IMG/VR virus record: IMGVR_UViG_2531839239_000026
Direction: 5' to 3' (one strand)
Length of the DNA stretch: 9,175 nt
Source of the DNA: a virus
Lineage: Duplodnaviria; Heunggongvirae; Uroviricota; Caudoviricetes
The notes under the pieces were generated by a model. It had not been told where the DNA came from, ran no database searches, and saw nothing but the letters and a program-made list of their open reading frames with translations. Of this stretch, positions 1-9,175 are shown piece by piece. The number at the start of each line of letters is the position of its first letter. The stretch's first letter is position 1. The translations under genes were made by a program, and so were the position numbers.

Positions 1-1236
1 CTATGATAACCGCGCATTCAACATGGCTACCTGTTCGTCGTTCATGTCATCAATCCACATACCGTAAATTTCATACACCATCTGCGCAGTTTCATGCCCC
101 ATTTGGCTGGCTATAAATGCCGGGTTCGCTCCTGCCGTCAACAGCCAGCAGGCAAAAGTATGCCGCGTATGGTACGGATTACGGCGGCGAATACCAGCAC
201 GTTTTACTGCTGCATTCCACCTTGCCCCCAAACTGCTTACCGAGTAATAAGGTTTTTGTTTTCCGTTACACACCCTGGGCATGAAAACAAAATGCAGTTT
301 TTGCTTTTCGGTTCTGCCGTACTCCCGATGATAAAAGGTGATTTCGCTTTTGCGATGATGCCCGGTCAGTTTGTATTGCTCCTTCAGTGCTTCAAGAGCA
401 GGCTGCAGTAGTGTTACCGTCCGGATCCCCGCATTTGTTTTTGGGGGACCGAACATATCCAGTATCGTCAGGTTTCTTCTGACATTCACAACTCCCTTCT
501 CGAAATCCACATCCTCCCACGCCAGAGCAGCCAGTTCCCCGTGACGAAGCCCGGAGTATACGGCAAATTTCCACAAGTTCTGGCTCTGTCCTTTTTCACT
601 TTCCATTAATGCATTGAATTCTGTTTTAGATAACGGGTCAGGCTTTATTCTGTTTCTCTGTAATTTCTTTACTCCTTCAAATGGTTTGGTTGATATAAAT
701 CCCGACTGATACGCAAAACGTAACAACGAACAGAGCAGGGCGATATAGTTATCAACTGTGCGCACGGTTCTTCCTTTTTTGTTGGATCTTGGATTATCCA
801 GGTAAAGCGTTTCTCCATGCAGCAGTTCATTCCGGTAGTTTAAGATATCGCTATAACGAATATGCGATATCGGAGTACTCTCACAAATTATTATCCTGAG
901 TGTTTTTAATTGTGATTTCGTTTTCTTCATTGTGTTTGTTGTTAACTCTGTTTCTTTAATTTTTGTCCAGATATCACAAAGCTCCCCGAACGTTTTTATG
1001 ACCCTCGTTGTCACCATTTTTGCCCCAGTGCTGGACTGGGGAAAACGTCTTAAATACTCAAACTCACCGGAATTGATTTCATGAACTATCAACGCTCTTA
1101 AATTCCCGGCTTTTTTAATGTTACTGTTAGTAACCTCCCAGCCTTTCAATGTTTCCCGACATCGTTTTCCTCGAAACATGAACCAGATGCGAATGTATTT
1201 ACCTCGAATCTCGACACCTGTTGGTAATTTAGACAT
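1..1236 (-). CDS. intR: Tyrosine-family phage integrase (IntR-like), 411 aa
   Basis: Track ORF 1..1236 (-), ATG at 1236..1234, stop TAG at 3..1. C-terminus carries an H-x-x-R motif (HTRHTFA) and a downstream Tyr (VYEIY), typical of tyrosine recombinases. Length matches my recall of Rac IntR. Confidence 0.9.
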   Translation of the reverse strand: MSKLPTGVEIRGKYIRIWFMFRGKRCRETLKGWEVTNSNIKKAGNLRALIVHEINSGEFEYLRRFPQSSTGAKMVTTRVIKTFGELCDIWTKIKETELTTNTMKKTKSQLKTLRIIICESTPISHIRYSDILNYRNELLHGETLYLDNPRSNKKGRTVRTVDNYIALLCSLLRFAYQSGFISTKPFEGVKKLQRNRIKPDPLSKTEFNALMESEKGQSQNLWKFAVYSGLRHGELAALAWEDVDFEKGVVNVRRNLTILDMFGPPKTNAGIRTVTLLQPALEALKEQYKLTGHHRKSEITFYHREYGRTEKQKLHFVFMPRVCNGKQKPYYSVSSLGARWNAAVKRAGIRRRNPYHTRHTFACWLLTAGANPAFIASQMGHETAQMVYEIYGMWIDDMNDEQVAMLNARLS

Positions 1237-1237
1237 A

Positions 1238-1453
1238 TCATGAGTCTTTGATAAACTGATTTATCTTTGGATAGTTATACCAGATAATCCCTCGCTTACT
1301 GTCTGGCTTCCCTAAAGGAGATACTCGTTTGAAGTGGAAGCCTTCCACCCAACAGTTCTGGCGGTATGCTTCAATTTGTCTGGCCCCCAGACCAGTGCGA
1401 AGCATCAGGCCGTATTCAACCATCCACTCTTCATTAAAGATTACTTGTGCCAT
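1238..1453 (-). CDS. xisR: Excisionase-like protein (YdaQ/XisR-like), 71 aa
   Basis: Track ORF 1238..1477 trimmed to the ATG at 1453 ([10 protein letters not shown]...), which is preceded by GAGGTG 7 nt upstream. Stop TGA at 1240..1238 abuts the int ATG, the usual xis-int arrangement. Confidence 0.7.
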
Positions 1454-1552
1454 CGCATCACCTCTGGCAGGCGCCAATGTTAGACTTAAATTGACGCCCG
1501 ATGTTGATTATTAATAATCAGCTATGAAGTTTTAATTTGAATACAATGCAAT

Positions 1553-1741
1553 TCACGAGGACTGAAGTTTCTCGCAATTAAAATTTATCAGTTTTACTTT
1601 CTGCTCTCTGGAAACGCCTGCTTCTTTTTTACCTGAGAGCATTTTTTCGCATTCTGATTTCGTTAGTTTAGATTTTGAATATCTTGTCCAGTTAGTAGGA
1701 GTGCCACCTTCCTTTTCAATAGTGGCGGTAATTTTATACAT
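1553..1741 (-). CDS. ydaC: Small Rac-prophage protein YdaC-like, 62 aa
   Basis: Track ORF 1553..1813 trimmed to the ATG at 1741 (MYKITATIEKEGG...), which has a strong SD (GGAGG, 5-nt spacer). The upstream extension overlaps the ralR frame. Start overlaps the TAA that closes the ralR frame (CATGTATAA). Confidence 0.6.
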   Translation of the reverse strand: MYKITATIEKEGGTPTNWTRYSKSKLTKSECEKMLSGKKEAGVSREQKVKLINFNCEKLQSS

Positions 1742-1928
1742 GAACACCTCCATTATTATTTCCAGTGGTTCGTTTATTTCATCGTTCGAGTGCTTCTTTT
1801 TCACTTCCACCATAACCGGTTCGGGATTCGCATCCGTTACACTTCGCTCGGTAATATCCTGAAATGGCTTTCACCGTTACTGATGGACAACCACAAAATG
1901 GACATGGTTTAACATTGTCATATCTCAT
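1734..1928 (-). pseudogene. ralR: Restriction-alleviation protein / DNase toxin RalR (Lar) frame, interrupted by an in-frame TGA at 1781..1779
   Basis: My own translation of the minus strand from ATG 1928 gives MRYDNVKPCPFCGCPSVTVKAISGYYRAKCNGCESRTGYGGSEKEALER, then TGA, then NKRTTGNNNGGVHV, then TAA at 1736..1734. Reading TGA as Trp gives exactly 64 aa, the RalR length I recall. Cys-x2-Cys ... Cys-x2-Cys zinc-ribbon-like pattern. An in-frame ATG also exists at 1940 (MRKIMRY...). Confidence 0.6.
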
Positions 1929-1983
1929 AATTTTTCTCATAAAAATATTTCAAGTTGGCGGTGCATTACACCGCCAGGCTGAA

Positions 1984-2793
1984 TTATTCCTCTGAATTAT
2001 CGATTACACTGTATTCCCCGGTTAATACAGAGGAATCTGCAGGATCGATTGTCAGTGGTTCCTTTTCATCCATTGATACTGCACGCTGGATCTCAATTGA
2101 TACGGGCAGATATTTGAACAGGCGACGAATAGCCGTTTTCTTTGCCATTTCTTCCCAGTGAGTTACCCACGGCCCGTTATTACCAGCTTTACTCTGGCTG
2201 CGCACCAGCTCAATCTGTTTGCGCGTCATAACTTCAAACTGAGTACCTCCGTCTTTCAGTCTTGCGACAGCATAGACGTGGGTAACAGGGGCATCTTCGT
2301 TTTCTCCTGGGCGGTGTATTAACTTTTCATCAAGGCCAAATTCGAAATTAAACTCGTCACCTTCACGGACAACACGGGCTGACAAGCTGGCGATTTGACC
2401 TGAACGGCGAGCCAGATCAATCATGCCTCGATAGCCAATGATTAGCTGAACGTTTTTTTTACCGCTCTTTTCGTTTTTATTACCAAAAGGCAGTAAATAT
2501 GCATGACCGAGGGCGCTACCGGGCTCAAGTCCGAGCTGTGAACACTGTACGATTGCACTGACAAAACTCATAGTGTCACAGTTTCCTAACGCCGGAACTT
2601 TACGAATTTCTGTGGTGGCGATACGGATCATACGTTCAGCCGTCATATGGCGTGGAAGAGCTGCTGCCAGTTGCTCTTTCATTGATGGCTGGTTAATAAA
2701 ACTAATCACGTCGTTATTTTTAATTGCTGCTGGTGCACGGTTTCCCTGAGTTTTTTGCAGATCGGCTTTTGCGATTGGTGGTTGCTTAGTCAT
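1984..2793 (-). CDS. recT: RecT single-strand annealing protein, 269 aa
   Basis: Track ORF 1984..2850 trimmed to ATG 2793 ([16 protein letters not shown]...), preceded by AAGGA 8 nt upstream. Start overlaps the recE stop by 8 nt. Sequence and length match my recall of RecT. Confidence 0.9.
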
Positions 2794-5386
2794 TTGCATA
2801 TTCCTTAGCCCAGCGGGGCAGTGATAACGTCTTAATAGCTGGCCATTCATCGGTATTGAGGCAGTCAGCCAGGGTTCGCAGATTGCGGTGATATTCCAGC
2901 TGACCTGCCAGTTTTGCTTCTTCGCCCATCATGAAAATTTCAACCGGATAACGTCCGCATTCAATAGTTGTGCTGGCAACCAGAAAAACGAAAGTTGGCT
3001 GCACTCCAAACTGTGCTTCATAACCGTCACTGTAGAATGCATCCTGAACGTGATAGCGGTAGTCGTAATAAGCGGTTTTGAATCGTTGAATATCCGCCGT
3101 AGTTTTCACGTCCATGATCCAGTGAAATTCAGGGATAATTTTGTCCGGACGGCACCGACACAAAATTGCTGTTTCAGGATCTTCCCAGTAAATTGATGAT
3201 TCAGCGTGTCCGGCGCTTTCAACAAGCCATTGCCCCAGCGGCAAAGCCATAACGCTCTGATACATGAGTTCAATTTTCCGGCCTTCTTCGGCAGTGATAA
3301 CCGTTTTTCCTGTGCTTGCGCATTCCCTCAGAAACGCTTTCTCTTCTTCTTTTCCGGAGTTTGTCCGGCGGTTAAATTCAGGTGCTACGATAAAGCGGTT
3401 ACTGAATTCTTCCGGCTCAAGTACCCGGCAGTGGAAAGCGGTTCCTAAATCGAGCGTTTTTGTCTTTGTGGTGTCCACGGGGGCATTTTTACGCCACAAA
3501 TACAGTGCCGGAGTATCAGCAATGTCATCGAGCTGAGACTTACTGACACCGGGACCCGCGTGGTAATTCTCATTCGAAATTCCGTAATAAATACCTGGCT
3601 CTATGTCTTCTACGATTACGGGATCTGCGACTTCGCCAGTTTCATCACTGCAATCGCGATGCGGATCGCTGCCAGCATTCTCATTGTGCGGATGTTCAGC
3701 GCCTTCCATTTCCTCCGGATCATTTTCCTTAGCTTCAACCTGACTCTCTTCATCGAATGTTTCCTGGTATGTTGCGTCGCCCATCACCGCACCACAGTCA
3801 GGGCAGTTATCCCCGCCAGTCTGGCCGCAGGCATTGCAGGCTATTTCCGGTTCCTGTTGCACTACTGGCTCAGGTTGATTCATATCCGGGCTGGTTTTTT
3901 CCGTTTCTGGCTGGTTCTGGTACACACAATCGCGAGTCTGGATCCCCTTTACCCATTTCGGATCGTTCGGGTCGCTAATTCCGTCAACAAATTCACCACG
4001 TGATGCAGCAAGCAATTTATCGGCATCGACAGGATTTTTTGATGGAATGTTTTTCCGGGCTTCATGGAGTTCTGCCCGCAGTTCCTGATATTTCGCATCA
4101 ACAGAATTTACCTGTGACTGAGCATCCAGCGGCTGCGTGTCCTGATGATGTTCAGTTGCGTCCGGTTCCATTGTTTCAGCCTCTCCCTGTTCAACTGCCG
4201 TTGTTCCAGATGGTTGCGGTTTTTCTTCATCATCCTGTTTTCCTTCTTCTGTTACTCGCTGCGGCATCGGGGCAGAGGAGCGACCGCAGGCAATATCCAC
4301 GATTTCCGGATCAGGGTTGGCATGAGCGGTTTCAGTCAGTACTTTGTTCAGATATTCAGTGACGTGCGCGGGGATGACCTCGATCCCAATTGGTGCTTCT
4401 TTTACGGACGCAACCACGATGGCGCGGGAATAATCCAGCCCGCCAGGCATGGTGATGAATTTGTCGCGGAAAACAGAAAAGGGCGGTTTATTTTCAGCGA
4501 TAATTTCCTCAATGCGTTTAGCGTGTGCCGGATGAAGGTTATAGATGTCCAGATCCATTGAACGGGCCAGTACGCCAGTGGCTACGTCGCGCGCCAGTGA
4601 CGTCAGATCGTGTACGAAACCTTCGCCGCGATCGGTGAGGTTTCCGCCGCCAGCATTAGCACCGGAAGCCGTGCGAGTGATGTGTGAAACACGATTACCC
4701 TTCATCCACTCTTTTGTCAGCAGTCCTCGATCGGTGTAGTCAGCGTTCAGGTATGCTTCGAAAAAAGCAGTTATCAGTCCCAGGTTTGAATTACCAGGAT
4801 TAGGGAAAACTTTGTCAGTGTCACGAACCAGTTTGTGGAGTTCGCGAATTTCCAGCGGGTCGAGCAGGCTGGTTTTGTGGGAAACAGCCAGGGCAGTAAC
4901 AGCCGGTAGTTCTTCAGCCCGAGCAATGTGTAATGCCTGGAGTCCGTCGCGTGAAACGTGCGTTACCGGTTTTTCGCTGCCGTGTTGAGCAAGCCAACGA
5001 ATGGGCAGTTCCTGGCCAGAAATTGGGAGTAGCATATTCTCCTCAATCTCAGTCATGTCTTCGCCGTTGACGTTGGTATTGCCTTGATAGTGAGCGTTGT
5101 CTGGTGCTGCTCCCGGTTTTAGTTCCCATGTCATGGAGTCTTTGCTGAGTTGATAGCGTTCACTCCAGGTAAAATCGATCTCACCTTCAGCGGGCAGGTC
5201 ATTAACGACAGGAAAATTCGTGGCAACAGCTTTAAAATAGCTGCTCAGTTTTTTACCTGACTTAACGATCAGGTAGTCCAGAGTGGCACAGGTCGATTCA
5301 AAATCGTTGCTTGCCCACAGGACGACGTCAGGTTCACCGGATGATTTTTTCGCTTTCCGTAACAGGAAGAGTGGTTTTGTGCTCAT
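2786..5386 (-). CDS. recE: RecE exonuclease VIII, 866 aa
   Basis: Track ORF 2786..5386 (-), [14 protein letters not shown]..., full length 866 aa. Has an acidic, low-complexity central region and a C-terminal nuclease region. Overlaps recT. Confidence 0.9.
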
Positions 5387-5457
5387 TGTTTTTTAACCTC
5401 AACTCAGATTAAAATTCGTTTTGTTCAGTGAATGATCTTGCCGGATACACACTGTTC

Positions 5458-5482
5458 ATAGCCTGCGCCATACGCAGGCTAT
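5458..5482. other. Perfect 10-bp-stem hairpin between recE and racC
   Basis: ATAGCCTGCG-CCATA-CGCAGGCTAT: 5458-5467 pairs with 5473-5482, 5-nt loop. Confidence 0.4.
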
Positions 5483-5487
5483 TTCTT

Positions 5488-5763
5488 TCAGATTTCACCT
5501 TTTAATTTCATTGCAATTAGAGTTGCCAGAAATTCGGCTTTTTTTTCTGTGGGCAGATTCTTTCCGATATGCACCAGGCACATTTTTTTGACACCTTCAT
5601 CAAGTGTTTTTACGTTGCCTGATGGACCATCGATATCAACCACAGTGAATGGGGTTTCTTTATTTTCTGTTTTAATTACGTAGCCAATGCGCTTTCCTTC
5701 CAGATTCACCTCGTGAACAATGTCATCGGTAGTTACAACAGTGGCTTCATAATTGGTAATCAT
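5488..5763 (-). CDS. racC: RacC-like protein, 91 aa
   Basis: Track ORF 5488..5811 trimmed to ATG 5763 (MITNYEATVVTTDD...), preceded by AAGGAG with a 6-nt spacer. Confidence 0.75.
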   Translation of the reverse strand: MITNYEATVVTTDDIVHEVNLEGKRIGYVIKTENKETPFTVVDIDGPSGNVKTLDEGVKKMCLVHIGKNLPTEKKAEFLATLIAMKLKGEI

Positions 5764-5837
5764 GTTTTTCTCCTTAATTAAGGTTGAGCGAATACCTGCC
5801 ATTTCTGGCATAAATTCAGTTTCGAATAGTCAATTAA

Positions 5838-6008
5838 TTAAAGTTCATGTGCCATCTGGTCTTTTTCGGCACAAGCTTCACTGCAATATTTTCTCGGTTC
5901 GTCTTTTGATAAAATCCCGTGCATGAAGTGAAGCATTCTTTCAATAGCTTTGCTTTCTTCAACGTCTTTTTTGCAAAGGTGGTAAGCACATTTTATTTTC
6001 TTAGTCAT
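5838..6008 (-). CDS. ydaE: YdaE-like small Cys-rich (metal-binding) protein, 56 aa
   Basis: Not in the ORF track because it is under 60 aa. My translation from ATG 6008: [56 protein letters not shown], stop TAA at 5840..5838. ATG overlaps the kilR TGA (ATGA). Confidence 0.7.
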   Translation of the reverse strand: MTKKIKCAYHLCKKDVEESKAIERMLHFMHGILSKDEPRKYCSEACAEKDQMAHEL

Positions 6009-6229
6009 CACCATGACTCCGCCTTTACAGGTAAACCATCACGACCGAGGAAGACTTTAATCATGCGGTCAGTAATGCATGTTTTTGTGGTCAGGTTACG
6101 AATATATAGTTTTCGCTTTTTAATATTGTTTGCCGAGGCAATATATGTCCGGCCTTCATGAAGAACATAATCGCCAGGAGTCACACACTGACGTGGTATT
6201 TCATCAGTTCCGAAGTGATGTGCAATCAT
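6008..6229 (-). CDS. kilR: KilR-like killing / cell-division inhibitor protein, 73 aa
   Basis: Track ORF 6008..6241 trimmed to ATG 6229 ([14 protein letters not shown]...), preceded by GGAG 8 nt upstream. Confidence 0.8.
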
Positions 6230-6410
6230 AATTATCTCCATTTTTACAAATGAACTTTGTTGATGCGGTGCCTGGTGCCTCCAGGTGACTGCAACCAGTT
6301 AACAATTACAGTCGGCTTTCCCACCCAAACCAATAAGGACTAACATGACTTTTAACTGTGCCACGTGCGCTTAGCCGCATTCACCGCATCACAAAATTCA
6401 CTTTAAAAAG

Positions 6411-6452
6411 GGCGGACATCAGCCGAACTTCAAGAAAAAAACTGATGCCGCC
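6411..6452. other. Long interrupted inverted repeat in the kilR-sieB intergenic region
   Basis: GGCGGACATCAG (6411-6422) and CTGATGCCGCC (6442-6452) form an 11-bp stem with one bulged A around a 19-nt A-rich loop. On the minus strand it is followed by CTTTTTAAA. Confidence 0.3.
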
Positions 6453-6627
6453 AGGACTACACACAGCAATGTCGTTATTTACAACCGGAGGCGCACTCCC
6501 ACCATTTAAATTTAACAGACAAGACCGACTCTTTATGGATATCGGAAATGCGCCTTCGTGTTGTGCCCGGTTTTATTTCACCACCTCCGGGCTTCGGTGG
6601 TCTCGGCTATACCCCTACAGCGAGAGC

Positions 6628-6656
6628 TTGTGTTAACATTTCAATACCCTTACAGT
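6628..6656 (+). promoter_or_regulatory. Candidate sigma70 promoter for sieB
   Basis: TTGTGT (6628-6633), 17-bp spacer, TACAGT (6651-6656), 14 nt upstream of the sieB ATG. Sequence inspection only. Confidence 0.25.
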
Positions 6657-6670
6657 TGAGAGTTATTGAT

Positions 6671-7159
6671 ATGTTGGATGTATTTACTCCATTGTTGAAA
6701 CTTTTTGCTAACGAGCCACTCGAAAGACTTATGTATACGATTATCATTTTTGGTCTCACTCTCTGGCTGATACCGAAAGAGTTTACTGTCGCATTCAATG
6801 CTTATACTGAAATACCTTGGCTCTTTCAGATTATCGTTTTTGCCTTTTCTTTCGTGGTCGCCATTTCCTTCTCAAGATTGCGAGCACATATTCAAAAGCA
6901 TTATTCATTACTACCAGAGCAACGAGTATTGCTTCGTTTATCTGAGAAAGAAATCGCTGTATTTAAAGATTTCCTTAAAACAGGAAATCTTATTATCACT
7001 TCTCCTTGCCGTAACCCGGTTATGAAAAAATTAGAACGGAAGGGCATCATTCAACATCAGAGTGATAGCGCAAACTGTTCTTATTATCTCGTCACCGAAA
7101 AATACTCCCATTTTATGAAGTTATTCTGGAACAGCAGGAGTAGACGTTTTAATCGTTAG
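6671..7159 (+). CDS. sieB: Superinfection exclusion protein SieB-like, 162 aa
   Basis: Track ORF 6548..7159 trimmed to ATG 6671 (MLDVFTPLLKLFANEPLERLMYTIIIFGLTLWLIPKEF...). Two hydrophobic segments suggest a membrane protein. The N-terminal extension in the track is a Pro/Gly-rich intergenic read-in. Confidence 0.8.
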   Translation: MLDVFTPLLKLFANEPLERLMYTIIIFGLTLWLIPKEFTVAFNAYTEIPWLFQIIVFAFSFVVAISFSRLRAHIQKHYSLLPEQRVLLRLSEKEIAVFKDFLKTGNLIITSPCRNPVMKKLERKGIIQHQSDSANCSYYLVTEKYSHFMKLFWNSRSRRFNR

Positions 7160-7311
7160 CTTACTGTGTGCTTCTCCAACCATCGGCGCGCACCAGTTTC
7201 GGTTTTAAATGTTTTGCTTTTGGTATACGTCATGGCAGTGAACGTTCCATCCTGGTTGGGGAACACGCCGCACACCAGGGATTCGTTGTTGCCGAGGTCG
7301 ATTTTTTGCAT
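7156..7311 (-). CDS. ydaF: YdaF-like small protein, 51 aa
   Basis: Not in the ORF track. My translation from ATG 7311: MQKIDLGNNESLVCGVFPNQDGTFTAMTYTKSKTFKTETGARRWLEKHTVS, stop TAA 7158..7156. Its stop overlaps the sieB TAG (7157..7159) on the opposite strand. Confidence 0.65.
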   Translation of the reverse strand: MQKIDLGNNESLVCGVFPNQDGTFTAMTYTKSKTFKTETGARRWLEKHTVS

Positions 7312-7321
7312 TTTGCGAATC

Positions 7322-7456
7322 TCACATCTTGTTGCTACGTATAGCGACTTCTGCCTGCCAGAGATCCCAGTCGTTGCTGCGTAAAGCCTGCACAGCCTGG
7401 TTGTAAGTGATACCGCAACAATCCATCAAATACTGAACTACTTCGTAATGCACCAT
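7322..7456 (-). CDS. ydaG: YdaG-like small protein, 44 aa
   Basis: Not in the ORF track. My translation from ATG 7456: MVHYEVVQYLMDCCGITYNQAVQALRSNDWDLWQAEVAIRSNKM, stop TGA 7324..7322. A GGGGA SD-like element lies upstream. Confidence 0.65.
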   Translation of the reverse strand: MVHYEVVQYLMDCCGITYNQAVQALRSNDWDLWQAEVAIRSNKM

Positions 7457-7632
7457 CTTATCTATCCCCTTAACGCCGGGTGGCGGAACTAACTGCTGCA
7501 CTGCAAAATTTGAATCCCGCCGTCATGTTCATACGCCTCGGGCTGGCTACTTACCCCCTGACCACTGCTTGGTAACTCGAAGTATTGCCCGGCGTTCTGT
7601 GGGGCGGGGTGGGTGGTTGGTGTATGTAATCT

Positions 7633-7672
7633 ACAATAAAAAACTGTTTTTGTGTCAACAGTTTTTAATTGT
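7633..7672. promoter_or_regulatory. OL-like operator dyad with a leftward -35-like TTGACA in its spacer
   Basis: Left arm ACAATAAAAAACTGTT at 7633-7648, right arm AACAGTTTTTAATTGT at 7657-7672 (one mismatch to a perfect inverted repeat). Spacer TTTGTGTC reads TTGACA on the minus strand (7658..7653). The 16-mer left arm is identical to 8668-8683. Confidence 0.45.
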
Positions 7673-7682
7673 TGTTTTGGGC

Positions 7683-7705
7683 AAAAAAATCCCTCGAAAG
7701 AGGGA
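7683..7705 (-). terminator. Candidate intrinsic terminator downstream of parE
   Basis: Minus-strand RNA folds as UCCCUC-UUUC-GAGGGA (6-bp stem, 7690-7695 with 7700-7705) followed by seven U (plus-strand A-run 7683-7689). It starts 18 nt after the parE stop. Confidence 0.4.
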
Positions 7706-7723
7706 GTATGAAAATTGTTCAAC

Positions 7724-8011
7724 TCAGATAGAGAAGGGAAATTGTCGCCGAGAATGTGTCACGCTTACAATCTCAATGCTTGAAGCAGCTACTCTGTACA
7801 GGATTATGTAGTTAGGGTGGGTCACGATCTCTCTCAATCCAGAAACCCGTTCGCTTGGTGGATATAAGTACGGATGCTCAGATAGAGGTAATACCGATGT
7901 TTCAATGCGTATTTTTAGTCTACGTGCTGCCGGTGGGTTCTCCTTGGCGATGTAAGTTATGATCTGGCGCAAATCATCGCGAGCAGACGGTAGCCATAAA
8001 ATGGGTAACAT
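7724..8011 (-). CDS. parE: ParE/RelE-superfamily toxin (ParE-like), 95 aa
   Basis: Track ORF 7724..8011 (-). The C-terminal region ...LREIVTHPNYIILYRVAASSIEIVSVTHSRRQFP resembles the ParE/RelE fold signature. Start ATG overlaps the upstream gene's stop (TAATG), indicating translational coupling in toxin-after-antitoxin order. Confidence 0.75.
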   Translation of the reverse strand: MLPILWLPSARDDLRQIITYIAKENPPAARRLKIRIETSVLPLSEHPYLYPPSERVSGLREIVTHPNYIILYRVAASSIEIVSVTHSRRQFPFSI

Positions 8012-8202
8012 TACTCGCTCTTGTTAGTTACAGCAATTTGAGCAATAAGATTTTCCATTTCAGCCATTACCTCGTCATGTGGAATTGCGGGGCGAGTGTC
8101 TGCAAGGCTTGACGTTACTTTAGTGCGCAACCATTCGTTGTAACTGTTTTCTTGTTCGGTAGTTTCGAATTCTGAAACTATCGGAGAAAGGGCTGTACCC
8201 AT
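8011..8202 (-). CDS. paaA: Small antitoxin, PaaA-like partner of ParE, 63 aa
   Basis: Track ORF 8011..8202 (-), MGTALSPIVSEFETTEQENSYNEWLRTKV..., preceded by a strong SD (GAGGAG, 7-nt spacer). Small and acidic, immediately upstream of and coupled to the ParE-like gene. Resembles the PaaA2 antitoxin of the three-component paaR2-paaA2-parE2 system from my recall. Confidence 0.6.
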   Translation of the reverse strand: MGTALSPIVSEFETTEQENSYNEWLRTKVTSSLADTRPAIPHDEVMAEMENLIAQIAVTNKSE

Positions 8203-8229
8203 GGCATAACTCCTCTTCTTGTACTGTGG

Positions 8230-8631
8230 TCACGCCCGGCGGCTTTTTTGTGCCGCCAGCCACCTAGCAATGGTTTCTTCCATTGATTTTTTCTTGTCTT
8301 TGATTTCTTGAAGCATTTTTTCTTGGTCTTCCTCAGGAAACGCACTAAAAGCTTGGAGCAGTTCGCGTTGGCGAGGACCAATTTTCATCGTGTCAGGGGT
8401 GAAAATTTGCTCACACTCTTCAGGAGGCAATAAAAACCAATGCAATGGATGCCCTGAAACCTCAACCAGTTTATCCAAACTTGAGGCTTTAGGTGTAGCC
8501 TTACCGCTGACCCATTGTTGAACAGTTTGTTGTGTCACACCAATTCTACGGGCAAGCTCAGCCTGGCTCCATCCAGTTTCCTGAAGAAGCTTGCTGATTC
8601 TGTACATAGATACTTCTAGGGCGCTCATCAT
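8230..8631 (-). CDS. cI-like / PaaR-like HTH (XRE-family) repressor, 133 aa
   Basis: Track ORF 8230..8631 (-). HTH region ...SQAELARRIGVTQQTVQQWVSGKATPK... No LexA/S24-type peptidase C-terminal domain is apparent. Divergent from the Cro-like gene across the dyad-containing intergenic region. No SD precedes the ATG. Confidence 0.75.
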   Translation of the reverse strand: MMSALEVSMYRISKLLQETGWSQAELARRIGVTQQTVQQWVSGKATPKASSLDKLVEVSGHPLHWFLLPPEECEQIFTPDTMKIGPRQRELLQAFSAFPEEDQEKMLQEIKDKKKSMEETIARWLAAQKSRRA

Positions 8632-8667
8632 TATTCAATTTTACAGGTAAATACTGTTAAAAGCATC

Positions 8668-8706
8668 ACAATAAAAAACTGTTGATTGCATACAGTTTTT
8701 TATTGT
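8668..8706. promoter_or_regulatory. OR-like operator dyad between the divergent repressor and cro-like genes
   Basis: Perfect 15-bp inverted repeat: ACAATAAAAAACTGT at 8668-8682 and ACAGTTTTTTATTGT at 8692-8706, separated by TGATTGCAT. The spacer carries rightward -35-like TTGATT/TTGCAT hexamers. The left arm is the same 16-mer as 7633-7648. Confidence 0.5.
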
Positions 8707-8739
8707 AGGCTTTGCTTATAGTTTTTAGAGGAGGGCAAA

Positions 8740-9012
8740 ATGCTAGATAGCACTCGCGAAAAAATTAGGCAGAAATACACTCAGGCTGAAATAGGTCGTT
8801 ATATGGGGGTCGCTCAACAGACTGTTTGGCAATGGTTTAGCTTTGGCGTTCCCCCAAAGCAGGTAATTCCGTTATGCCAACTAATGAAGTGGGAAGTTAC
8901 CCCGCATGAAATCCGCCCAGATATTTATCCTAACCCAACCGACGGTTTACCTGTTGGATGTAAGGTTAACACATCAAATGCGCCGGAGTTGATTCATGAA
9001 AATCAAGCATGA
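8740..9012 (+). CDS. ydaS: Cro-like HTH regulator (YdaS family), 90 aa
   Basis: Track ORF 8740..9012 (+), MLDSTREKIRQKYTQAEIGRYMGVAQQTVWQWF... HTH-like region, GGAGG SD with a 4-nt spacer. Sits in the cro position, divergent from the repressor. Confidence 0.7.
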   Translation: MLDSTREKIRQKYTQAEIGRYMGVAQQTVWQWFSFGVPPKQVIPLCQLMKWEVTPHEIRPDIYPNPTDGLPVGCKVNTSNAPELIHENQA

Positions 9013-9175
9013 ACACATCCGCATGGCGATGAATGCCTGGGCGCATCCGGACGGCGAAAAAGTACCGGCTGCGAAAATTACCAAAGCGTATTTCGAGCTG
9101 GGAATGACGTTCCCGGAACTGTATGACGACAGCCATCCGGAAGCCATGGCTCGCAATACTCAGAAAATTTTCCGT
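8996..9175 (+). CDS. ydaT: YdaT-like protein, N-terminal 60 codons (runs off the window end)
   Basis: ATG at 8996 preceded by GGAG with a 7-nt spacer. Translation MKIKHEHIRMAMNAWAHPDGEKVPAAKITKAYFELGMTFPELYDDSHPEAMARNTQKIFR stays open to the window end. Overlaps the ydaS 3' end by 17 nt. Confidence 0.65.
   Translation, partial: MKIKHEHIRMAMNAWAHPDGEKVPAAKITKAYFELGMTFPELYDDSHPEAMARNTQKIFR

Follow-up and report, generated by a model that had tools for sequence, protein, structure and literature searches.

A draft contig of an O157:H7-like Escherichia coli joins the left arm of prophage Sp10 to the immunity region of prophage Sp4 within a short shared segment

How did the left arm of a Rac-family prophage come to stand beside an immunity region of another kind? 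The DNA analysed here (9,175 nt, hereafter the window) forms the final part of the 19.8-kb draft contig AOED01000115.1 (GCA_000335295.2) from an O157:H7-like strain, and the contig ends 2 nt later. The original prediction held that a Rac-like left arm adjoins an immunity module different from that of K-12, and nucleotide alignment to K-12 Rac bears this out: identity is 98.86% over positions 1-7617, the predicted drop follows, and no nucleotide similarity was detected beyond 7617. To the right of that point, the repressor, cro and ydaT products are only 33-44% identical to RacR, YdaS and YdaT, in alignments of 36-53 aa. The best coverage of the window by a single reference prophage is 85%, in two pieces, so that no one prophage matches it uniformly from end to end. 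The left part of the window contains the following features.

1..7464: left arm of a Rac-family prophage, Sp10/CP-933R, near-identical to Sakai Sp10 and EDL933 CP-933R; its genes are intR, xisR, rcbA-like, ralR/RalA, recT, recE, racC, ydaE, kilR, sieB, ydaF and ydaG
7322..7456, minus strand: ydaG, 44 aa, the final left-arm-specific gene ahead of the shared linker S, equal to K-12 ydaG in length and position
7465..7613: conserved linker S of about 150 nt, which many lambdoid prophages have in common, with the left dyad close by on its right
7519..7553: interval of the crossover, delimited by informative sites, in which Sp10 and Sp4 agree at all 35 nt

In the source contig intR adjoins ttcA, the Rac site, as in K-12 Rac and Sp10, and the 4,215 nt of host DNA flanking the prophage contain no mismatch to Sakai or EDL933. 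The gene lengths that the original prediction gave for K-12 each agree with its annotation (in aa: intR 411, xisR 71, ralR 64, recT 269, recE 866, racC 91, ydaE 56, kilR 73, sieB 162, ydaF 51, ydaG 44 and RacR 158). The window thus has the ttcA site and the intR-to-ydaG left arm of K-12 Rac, and lacks its RacR/YdaS/YdaT immunity region. Integration at ttcA and the entire left arm are also shared with Sp10/CP-933R and with induced phages such as vB_EcoS-666R9, the window being 99.86% identical to phage 666R9 over positions 1-7634. These relatives differ from the window in what follows the left arm. Sp10, phage 666R9 and 40EC have a repressor of 139 aa and a Cro of 84 aa, and K-12 Rac has RacR (158 aa) and YdaS (98 aa), whereas the window encodes a 133-aa repressor and a 90-aa Cro-like protein whose gene overlaps ydaT, as had been anticipated. 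The annotated immunity regions of Sp10, 666R9, 40EC and K-12 Rac contain no toxin-antitoxin pair, unlike that of the window.

K-12 had been taken as the relevant comparison, but the two halves of the window match two prophages that reside together in O157:H7, with one base off in all. Positions 1-7553 show a single mismatch to Sakai Sp10 and EDL933 CP-933R (4326 G>T), and positions 7519-9174 show zero mismatches to EDL933 CP-933M. Judged from these alignments, the window is a hybrid of two lambdoid prophages co-resident in E. coli O157:H7, spliced in a short segment common to both: left of 7519 it is Sp10/CP-933R at ttcA, and right of 7553 it is the immunity region of Sp4/CP-933M. Sp10 and Sp4 are both present, unrecombined, in EDL933 and in Sakai. 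In the window, Sp10's own immunity region does not follow its left arm, and the sequence is that of Sp4 from 7554 on. At the differing sites within 7482-7518 the window has the Sp10 state throughout, and at 7554, 7569 and all differing sites further right it has the Sp4 state. In bins of 100 nt, identity to K-12 and Sp10 falls from 97-100% to the background of forced alignment at 7600, and identity to Sp4/CP-933M is 100% in each bin from 7600 to the window end. Around the switch, Sp10 and Sp4 are exactly identical over only 35 nt, within 176 aligned nt at 87%, and right of the switch no nucleotide similarity between them was detectable before the replication genes.

The crossover interval lies within S, which was found in K-12 Rac, 40EC, phage 666R9, Sp10, Sp4, TUM1881 and seven further loci, and these loci differ both in their left arms and in their immunity cassettes. 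Similarity of the window to prophages with the same cassette begins at 7452-7465, Sp4/CP-933M diverging left of 7465, and similarity to Rac-type prophages with other cassettes stops at 7617-7634. Among K-12, Sp10, Sp4, TUM1881 and L014, S types and cassette types occur in independent combinations. A Rac-type S is joined to the same cassette as in the window in TUM1881, a complete genome, and in L014, a draft contig, and these two indicate that natural exchanges at S do occur. We infer that S forms the 5' leader of leftward early transcription and spans the stretch from just downstream of the left operator cluster to the ribosome-binding site that serves the first gene of the left arm. A structured RNA or known RNA family in S was set aside for want of support: Rfam in E-value mode gave no match there, and the fold of the leader is no better than that of shuffled sequence (z = -1.24). 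A 20-codon open reading frame that might explain the conservation of S is a minor point only; it occurs as two in-frame alleles, one locus has it truncated, and in another the motif used to search for its start was not found.

To the right of S, the window holds the operator clusters and genes listed here.

7633..7672: predicted left operator cluster (OL), two 15-bp sites, ACAATAAAAAACTGT and ACAGTTTTTAATTGT, 25 nt apart centre to centre
7680..7705, minus strand: hairpin resembling an intrinsic terminator, downstream of parE, with a 6-pair stem at 7705-7690 and a T run in its tail, TTTTTTTGCC
7724..8011, minus strand: ParE-family toxin, 95 aa, the CP-933M copy, ParE1-type (PF05016, ParE2 structure)
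8011..8202, minus strand: PaaA-family antitoxin, 63 aa, its stop overlapping the parE start (PF21217, PaaA2 structure)
8230..8631, minus strand: PaaR-type helix-turn-helix (HTH) repressor, 133 aa, probable CI analogue (Pfam HTH_3, residues 13-58)
8643..8706: predicted right operator cluster (OR), three 15-bp sites at 8643, 8668 and 8692, spaced by 25 and 24 nt
8740..9012, plus strand: YdaS-family protein, 90 aa, probable Cro analogue (PF15943, E 8e-10)
8985..9019: recurrent right-hand module boundary at the cro/ydaT overlap, from the identity changes of other prophages
8996..9175, plus strand: 5' part of ydaT, 60 aa, probable CII analogue, cut by the contig end

The toxin matches Pfam PF05016 (E 2.9e-17, 63.5 bits against a cut-off of 23) and the ParE2 structure 5cw7_B (E 3e-36, 62 of 93 residues identical), and the antitoxin matches PF21217, PaaA2 (E 5.6e-19, 68.3 bits against a cut-off of 27) and the PaaA2 structure 3zbe (E 1.4e-20, 38 of 53 residues identical). 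The gap between paaR and paaA is 27 nt, paaA and parE overlap by 1 nt, and the only terminator-like hairpin follows parE. The structural features of a PaaR-PaaA-ParE module were thus found: a toxin of the ParE fold, a small PaaA-family antitoxin without DNA-binding domain, and a same-strand HTH regulator gene directly upstream, in what we infer from this spacing to be one co-transcribed operon. The original prediction was right that a ParE-type pair is present, but the pair is not a separate insertion, being part of the known paaR-paaA-parE operon (PMC8630535).

The repressor matches Phage_CI_repr above the Pfam threshold, and its best solved relative is the 434 repressor. In partial alignments its identity to the Sp10 repressor and RacR is 27-34% (34% over 53 aa for RacR). 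Among Pfam families it matched those of HTH type only and no Peptidase_S24 domain, in agreement with the statement that the Sp4 repressor is without peptidase domain (PMC2669165). The C-terminal S24 peptidase that serves RecA-stimulated self-cleavage in the lambda/434 type is therefore lacking, and the module would resemble a CI/Cro switch without being a member of the SOS-cleavable CI type. PADLOC, which covers catalogued anti-phage defence, gave generic HTH matches only for the repressor and no match for SieB, the toxin, the antitoxin or cro. On the other strand, the DNA of the cro analogue is identical to the CP-933M copy and its protein is 33% identical to K-12 YdaS over 51 aa. It overlaps ydaT (start at 8996) by 17 nt, and the 60 aa of YdaT that the window encodes agree with Sp4 YdaT at every residue (100%), identity to the K-12 protein being 44% over the first 36 aa. 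In 40EC-type Rac, 99.5% identity to the window is regained from 8985, and in TUM1881, L013 and L014 identity to the window is lost at 9019, suggesting that the right edge of the cassette lies at about 8985-9019 or beyond the window.

By its sequence, the cassette corresponds to the published PaaR2-PaaA2-ParE2 immunity region, of which it is the homologue from CP-933M. We take this homologue to be the one to which Hallez et al. 2010 gave the name paaR1-paaA1-parE1. The window agrees with CP-933M/Sp4 of O157:H7 in the order and lengths of its genes and in the cro/ydaT overlap, but the left context differs: in CP-933M the cassette is preceded by ydfA/ydfB, dicB and a YdfE-type exonuclease in a prophage that adjoins yccA, whereas in the window it is preceded by the Sp10 left arm at ttcA. 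The published region is that of CP-933P (Sp12), which comprises PaaR2-PaaA2-ParE2, YdaS and YdaT (Jurenas et al. 2021, mBio, PMC8630535) and for which a YdaT structure has been described (PMC9986795). As in the window, the HTH repressor, PaaA antitoxin and ParE toxin of CP-933P are encoded on one strand, with ydaS and ydaT divergent. CP-933P also has a second operator cluster with a leftward promoter past the toxin gene, and the architecture of the window matches this, the promoter scan being without match. The window cassette is a paralogue of the CP-933P locus, ParE being 67% and PaaA 72% identical over the aligned part, and it is only for the CP-933P paralogue that ParE toxicity, its neutralisation by PaaA and the addictive nature of the locus are established (PMC8630535). 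The operator sites differ too, the window having 15-bp sites of the form ACAGT-N5-ACTGT and CP-933P 18-bp palindromes with the half-site consensus GTTTAGTAA (PMC8630535), so that immunity specificity is presumably different.

By analogy with CP-933P, the right half of the window would function like the immunity region of lambda, with the repressor in the role of CI, the 90-aa YdaS-type protein in that of Cro and YdaT in that of CII. Binding of the 133-aa PaaR-type repressor to the 15-bp sites, three at OR and two at OL, would shut off both the rightward transcription of cro and ydaT and leftward early transcription. The genes for the repressor, the PaaA antitoxin and the ParE toxin would share one transcript, ended by the hairpin at 7680-7705 just ahead of OL. 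The toxin-antitoxin pair occupies the position of rexAB in lambda and may make the cassette addictive.

The two dyads that the original prediction had noticed both exist and stand far above chance. When up to one mismatch is allowed, ACAGT-N5-ACTGT matches the window 6 times against 0.25 expected, and five of the six matches fall in these two places. The five sites are the predicted OL and OR of the incoming cassette. The OL sites start at 7633 and 7658. The arms of the left dyad (7628-7648 and 7657-7677) are 86% complementary, those of the right dyad (8668-8682 and 8692-8706) are 100% complementary, and 7631-7647 in OL is 100% complementary to 8692-8708 in OR, OL being a near copy of the right operator pair. 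The OR sites, whose spacing resembles that of lambda OR1-OR3, lie in the 108 nt that separate the repressor gene from the divergent cro. Repeated sites in a short gap between divergent repressor and cro, and a second cluster of the same sites left of the repressor operon, are the arrangement of a lambdoid immunity region. A scan for consensus sigma-70 promoters gave no match at OL or OR, so that positions for PL, PR and PRM are unsupported and these promoters were left unplaced.

The dyads had been proposed as the exchange points of an old swap of immunity cassettes in the Rac lineage. Such exchange between lambdoid phages is classical, as for lambda imm434 and imm21 (PMC8630535), and homology to K-12 Rac and phage 666R9 does stop at 7617-7634, beside the left dyad. 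The informative sites nevertheless place the switch left of it, at 7519-7553. CP-933M has the left dyad (7633-7672), which K-12, Sp10 and 40EC lack; the dyad is part of the incoming cassette and lies 20-80 nt right of the crossover. The right dyad (8668-8706) is in mid-cassette, between the repressor and cro, which were swapped together; identity to CP-933M runs unbroken across it to the window end, and the right boundary seen with other prophages is at 8985-9019. The span of 7457-8740 that had been predicted does include the junction, which is narrower (7519-7553, at its widest 7465-7613), and the cassette reaches further, to about 8985-9019. Moreover, the halves are identical or nearly so to two co-resident prophages, with one mismatch in all, so that the join must be very recent or artificial and not an old exchange. 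An old swap at the dyads is contradicted by the alignments and is very improbable.

The module types, their architecture and the principle of mosaicism have already been described. In lambda imm434 and imm21 hybrids, and in the modular theory, repressor, operators and cro are swapped as one block, and crossovers occur in flanking sequence common to both parents, as appears to be the case here. Compared with classical lambdoid hybrids, the common flank is only about 150 nt with an exact block of 35 nt, the block swapped also holds a toxin-antitoxin pair, and the parents are prophages of one chromosome.

The join might not exist in the strain. We lean slightly toward the reading that the assembler jumped from Sp10 to Sp4 via the 35-nt identical block while the draft contig was built. 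The contig stops only 1.66 kb past the switch. In the O157:H7 strain TR01, the segment just before the contig end occurs at four places and the segment just after it at one. A stop this close to the switch and a multi-copy segment at the end are signs of repeat-limited assembly. A junction probe (7150-7950, at least 80% coverage) was found in 0 of 5,426 complete E. coli genomes, among which 308 records had a best match to the left-arm query of at least 99% identity. The junction pattern, which in a control matched the window itself, was absent from GTDB species representatives, IMG/VR and JGI metagenomes, and in the phage records searched the best matches end at 7625. Exact look-up of the RecE protein returned the source contig only, and that of ParE returned other left-arm contexts with no second copy of the window junction.

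An assembler jump is to be weighed against a real and very recent homologous exchange between Sp10 and Sp4 in the 35-nt block, via RecA or the RecET of Sp10, which we consider a serious candidate of somewhat less than even likelihood. The flanks match both resident prophages with one mismatch in all, as expected of a recent in vivo event, the crossover falls within a stretch of perfect identity, and S is a natural exchange site at which S type and cassette type assort independently. A stretch of 35 nt is short for RecA-type exchange, and just 87% identity over 176 aligned nt surrounds it, but RecET-type systems can use homologies of about 35-50 nt. Sp10 is spontaneously inducible and reportedly the only one of the Sakai prophages whose ExoVIII-type (RecET) recombination system is intact, and experiments with Sp5 and Sp15 have shown that Sakai prophages can recombine into chimeric phages (PMC2669165).

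The geometry of the parents bears on such an exchange. Sp10 and Sp4 have opposite orientations in the EDL933 record, whereas Sakai carries both on one strand. With inverted prophages a real exchange would cause a large chromosomal inversion, and with direct ones a patch replacement or a duplication; either outcome would give an Sp10 derivative with Sp4 immunity and the addictive ParE/PaaA pair. However, a single crossover implies an inversion or duplication of about 0.75-0.9 Mb, and a patch replacement requires a second crossover further right, where Sp10 and Sp4 are without detectable similarity until the replication genes. The contig ends ahead of where any second junction could appear. That Sp10 replaced its immunity region, in this strain specifically, by that of the defective Sp4 through 35-nt microhomology, possibly with its own RecET, is less probable than not.

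The assembler broke at a genuine multi-copy repeat yet walked through S, a behaviour that speaks against a mis-join. If its word size or the reads exceeded 44 nt, S was unambiguous and the path through it is real.

If the assembler did jump, which is the reading we prefer, short conserved linkers between prophage modules can yield chimeric contigs in draft O157:H7 genomes, and these have exactly the appearance of biological mosaicism. A real join would document that co-resident O157:H7 prophages recombine at very short homology and would narrow a natural exchange point down to 35 nt; the PaaR-PaaA-ParE cassette would then move as a unit with its operators and cro, fitting the idea that the toxin-antitoxin pair rides with the immunity module and stabilises it. 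A strain-specific swap would in addition have produced a phage with new immunity that also bears an addictive ParE/PaaA pair, a modular exchange caught in the act at a linker sequence, and would bear on a proposal in the literature that a toxin-antitoxin pair safeguards its own immunity cassette during exchanges. As a separate observation, among the lambdoid prophages of O157:H7 other than the Stx phages, Sp10 is the best preserved, and it is transferable.

When the whole window was aligned with 5,426 complete E. coli genomes, the best coverage by any record was at most 85%, so that uniform identity to one prophage was not found. The K-12 Rac prophage aligns at 98.86% identity over 1-7617, with no alignment beyond. 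Binned by 100 nt, the identity to K-12 and Sp10 (CP-933R, the Rac-family prophage at ttcA in O157:H7) stays at 97-100% and then drops to the forced-alignment background at 7600, and all bins between 7600 and the window end are 100% identical to O157:H7 CP-933M (Sp4, a second prophage, beside yccA). The mosaic is real at the sequence level. These alignments bear out the original prediction of a Rac-like left arm joined to a different immunity module, but the module is a known one and its boundaries are not at the two dyads (7633-7672 and 8668-8706) proposed as exchange points. The left-arm products of 411, 71, 64, 269, 866, 91, 56, 73, 162, 51 and 44 aa, taken from the ORF list and the K-12 annotation, agree with all the lengths given in the original prediction, as does RacR with 158 aa. 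The window is a mosaic in which a Rac-family left arm meets a foreign immunity module, and the specific join is possibly artificial. The kinds of element involved, lambdoid modular exchange and the PaaR-PaaA-ParE immunity region, are already known.

Searched alone, the immunity region matches a prophage that lies next to yccA in EDL933, in Sakai and in many further O157:H7 genomes, annotated as Sp4 in the Sakai record. All four genes of the region recur in Sp4 at equal length, with cro overlapping ydaT in the same way, and window 7519-9174 has zero differences from EDL933 CP-933M. The left arm alone (1-7464) is a 100.0% match to the ttcA prophage of the same genomes, Sp10 in the Sakai annotation, and the sole mismatch to Sp10 over 1-7553 is a G>T at 4326 in recE. 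The top complete-genome left-arm matches listed are all equal in score, consistent with each carrying this mismatch. An exact-protein look-up of this RecE variant gave a single draft contig of 19.8 kb, AOED01000115.1 (GCA_000335295.2), whose last 9,175 nt are the window, the contig stopping two bases later (9177). The 4,215 nt of chromosome adjoining the prophage in this contig are identical to Sakai and EDL933, and by this host flank and both prophage matches the source is an O157:H7-like strain. The window joins two prophages that normally reside apart in such a genome.

The ORF list gives the following genes in the immunity region, shown with a hairpin:

7705-7680: terminator-like hairpin, after parE
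7724-8011, minus strand: 95-aa gene, downstream of the 133-aa gene on the same strand
8011-8202, minus strand: 63-aa gene, also downstream of the 133-aa gene on the same strand
8230-8631, minus strand: helix-turn-helix protein, 133 aa
8740-9012: 90-aa gene, divergent from the repressor, overlapping the ydaT start at 8996

The 95-aa product is a ParE toxin (PF05016) that shares 67% identity with ParE2 of structure 5cw7, and the 63-aa product is an antitoxin of the PaaA2 family (PF21217) that shares 72% identity with structure 3zbe over 53 aa. The 133-aa product is a helix-turn-helix repressor without a peptidase domain, its closest solved relative being the 434 repressor, and the divergent 90-aa product belongs to the YdaS family. 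The paralogous paaR2-paaA2-parE2 locus is the immunity region of CP-933P, where PaaR2, YdaS and YdaT are analogues of CI, Cro and CII; this locus is bistable and addictive, and CP-933M holds a homologue of it (Jurenas et al. 2021, PMC8630535). Judged by its sequence, the window carries the CP-933M copy of the PaaR-PaaA-ParE locus. Both predicted dyads are present, each a pair of 15-bp ACAGT-N5-ACTGT sites. Allowing at most one mismatch, the motif occurs six times in the window against 0.25 expected by chance, and five of the six sites lie at 7633 and 7658 (putative left operator cluster, OL) and at 8643, 8668 and 8692 (putative right cluster, OR). By analogy with CP-933P, the repressor would bind the three OR and two OL sites, and paaR, paaA and parE would be co-transcribed up to the hairpin. 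Site spacing in OR and OL is 24-25 nt, like that of lambda, and the toxin-antitoxin pair stands in place of lambda rexAB. A consensus promoter scan gave no match at OL or OR, whose promoters are putative. Three different cassettes occupy this position next to left arms that are otherwise nearly identical: a 158-aa repressor with a 98-aa Cro in K-12, a 139-aa repressor with an 84-aa Cro in Sp10 and the comparison prophage 40EC, and a 133-aa repressor with a 90-aa Cro and the toxin-antitoxin pair in the window. The three repressors are mutually only 27-36% identical, over partial alignments.

The switch was mapped by a six-way alignment and a site-by-site comparison. A segment at about 7465-7613, here called S, is common to all prophages examined. 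The sites distinguishing Sp10 from Sp4 at 7482-7518 are in the Sp10 state in the window, and 7554, 7569 and everything rightward are in the Sp4 state; thus the switch lies within 7519-7553, 35 nt that are identical in Sp10 and Sp4. With its start at 7633, the left dyad belongs to the part derived from Sp4, and it is absent from K-12, Sp10, 40EC and phage 666R9, and the right dyad falls mid-cassette, between repressor and cro. Neither dyad is an exchange point, and a model of exchange at these sites is very improbable. To the right, 40EC, a Rac-type prophage with an Sp10-type repressor, regains 99.5% identity to the window from 8985, and three prophages with the same cassette lose identity at 9019. 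As placed by these other prophages, the right boundary is the cro/ydaT overlap, and the exchange unit comprises OL, terminator, parE, paaA, paaR, OR and cro (about 7614-9000). ydaT is a module of its own, which assorts independently of the repressor and cro genes. In 40EC (L001 9983-10172; window 8985-9175), Sp10-type repressor and Cro are followed by an Sp4-type ydaT, whose first 60 aa are 98% identical; the ydaT of Sp10 is of the K-12 type.

Loci retrieved by the exact ParE protein place the same cassette beside several kinds of left arm, Sp4-type (ydfA, dicB, YdfE-type exonuclease) and recE/kilR-type, and one of these loci has an IS66 insertion. In locus L015, an IS66-family element lies around 3908 (window 7603) in the linker just left of OL, and similarity begins only at 7603. 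Loci with Sp4-type or recE/kilR-type left arms become similar to the window at 7452-7465, and prophages that combine a Rac-type left arm with other cassettes cease to be similar at 7617-7634. A Rac-type S with the same cassette is found in TUM1881 (complete genome) and L014 (draft contig). These combinations and the limits of similarity at S indicate that exchange has occurred in nature, either within S or at its edges. S lies just downstream of OL and reaches as far as the ribosome-binding site of the first gene of the left arm, and from this position we infer that S forms the leader of the leftward early transcript. An Rfam search of S gave no match, and its fold was not significant. In the leader, OL is directly followed by a tract rich in C and poor in G, CACCAACCACCCACCCCGCCCCACAGAAC (7596-7622, minus strand), which could be imagined, purely as speculation, to be a Rho-utilisation site. 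S also contains a 20-codon ORF (7470-7532, minus strand; MNMTAGFKFCSAAVSSATRR) with GAGG three bases upstream of its start; in the Sp4-type allele a 6-nt indel that keeps the frame makes it 22 codons long, and several changes are synonymous. Its coding is doubtful, since it has only 8 codons in L013 and the start-locating motif was not found in 40EC. The crossover interval overlaps the start of this ORF.

A single mismatch separates the window from the two resident prophages taken together, so either the join arose very recently or the assembler made it. A junction-spanning probe reached at least 80% coverage in none of the 5,426 complete genomes, the junction pattern had no match in three other collections, and none of the 308 complete-genome records whose best left-arm match is at least 99% identical has the join. 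We lean towards an assembler mis-join, for which we count the draft contig as source, the exact shared block of just 35 nt inside 176 aligned nt at 87%, the absence of the join from all the complete genomes, and the contig end 1.66 kb past the switch, where a segment with several places in O157:H7 TR01 stops. A single real crossover would imply a 0.75-0.9 Mb rearrangement, and a patch replacement needs a second crossover where Sp10 and Sp4 share no detectable similarity, both also counted for a mis-join. A real join made by recent recombination is nevertheless a serious possibility: the assembler broke at a true repeat yet not at S, S is a proven natural exchange site, and Sp10 and Sp4 are inverted relative to each other in the EDL933 record, so that a single crossover would give an inversion. 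The same reading is favoured by the reports that Sp10 has the only intact ExoVIII-type recombination system among Sakai prophages and is spontaneously inducible, and that chimeric phages arise between Sakai prophages (PMC2669165). The contig stop is informative on the assembler's handling of repeats. It falls at the far end of a cro/5'-ydaT segment that has four places in O157:H7 TR01; the sequence just beyond has one place in TR01.

Elsewhere in the left arm, ralR (1734-1928, minus strand) has TGA for TGG at codon 50, giving a 49-aa truncated toxin (64 aa in K-12), and the EDL933 annotation has the same 49-aa gene. The RalA antisense antitoxin sRNA (1557-1735, plus strand) is intact (Rfam RF02694, 225 bits). 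A DicF-like and an STnc100-like Rfam match (6410-6465 and 6222-6408, both minus strand) are sub-threshold, with 39 and 35.5 bits where the gathering scores are 48 and 47, respectively; the former falls where the K-12 Rac annotation has the sRNA kilS. Finally, the sieB frame (6548-7159, plus strand), when read from an upstream ATG, stays open for 203 codons, this long form (612 nt) being annotated in Sakai and phage 666R9 and the 162-aa form in K-12 and by PGAP.
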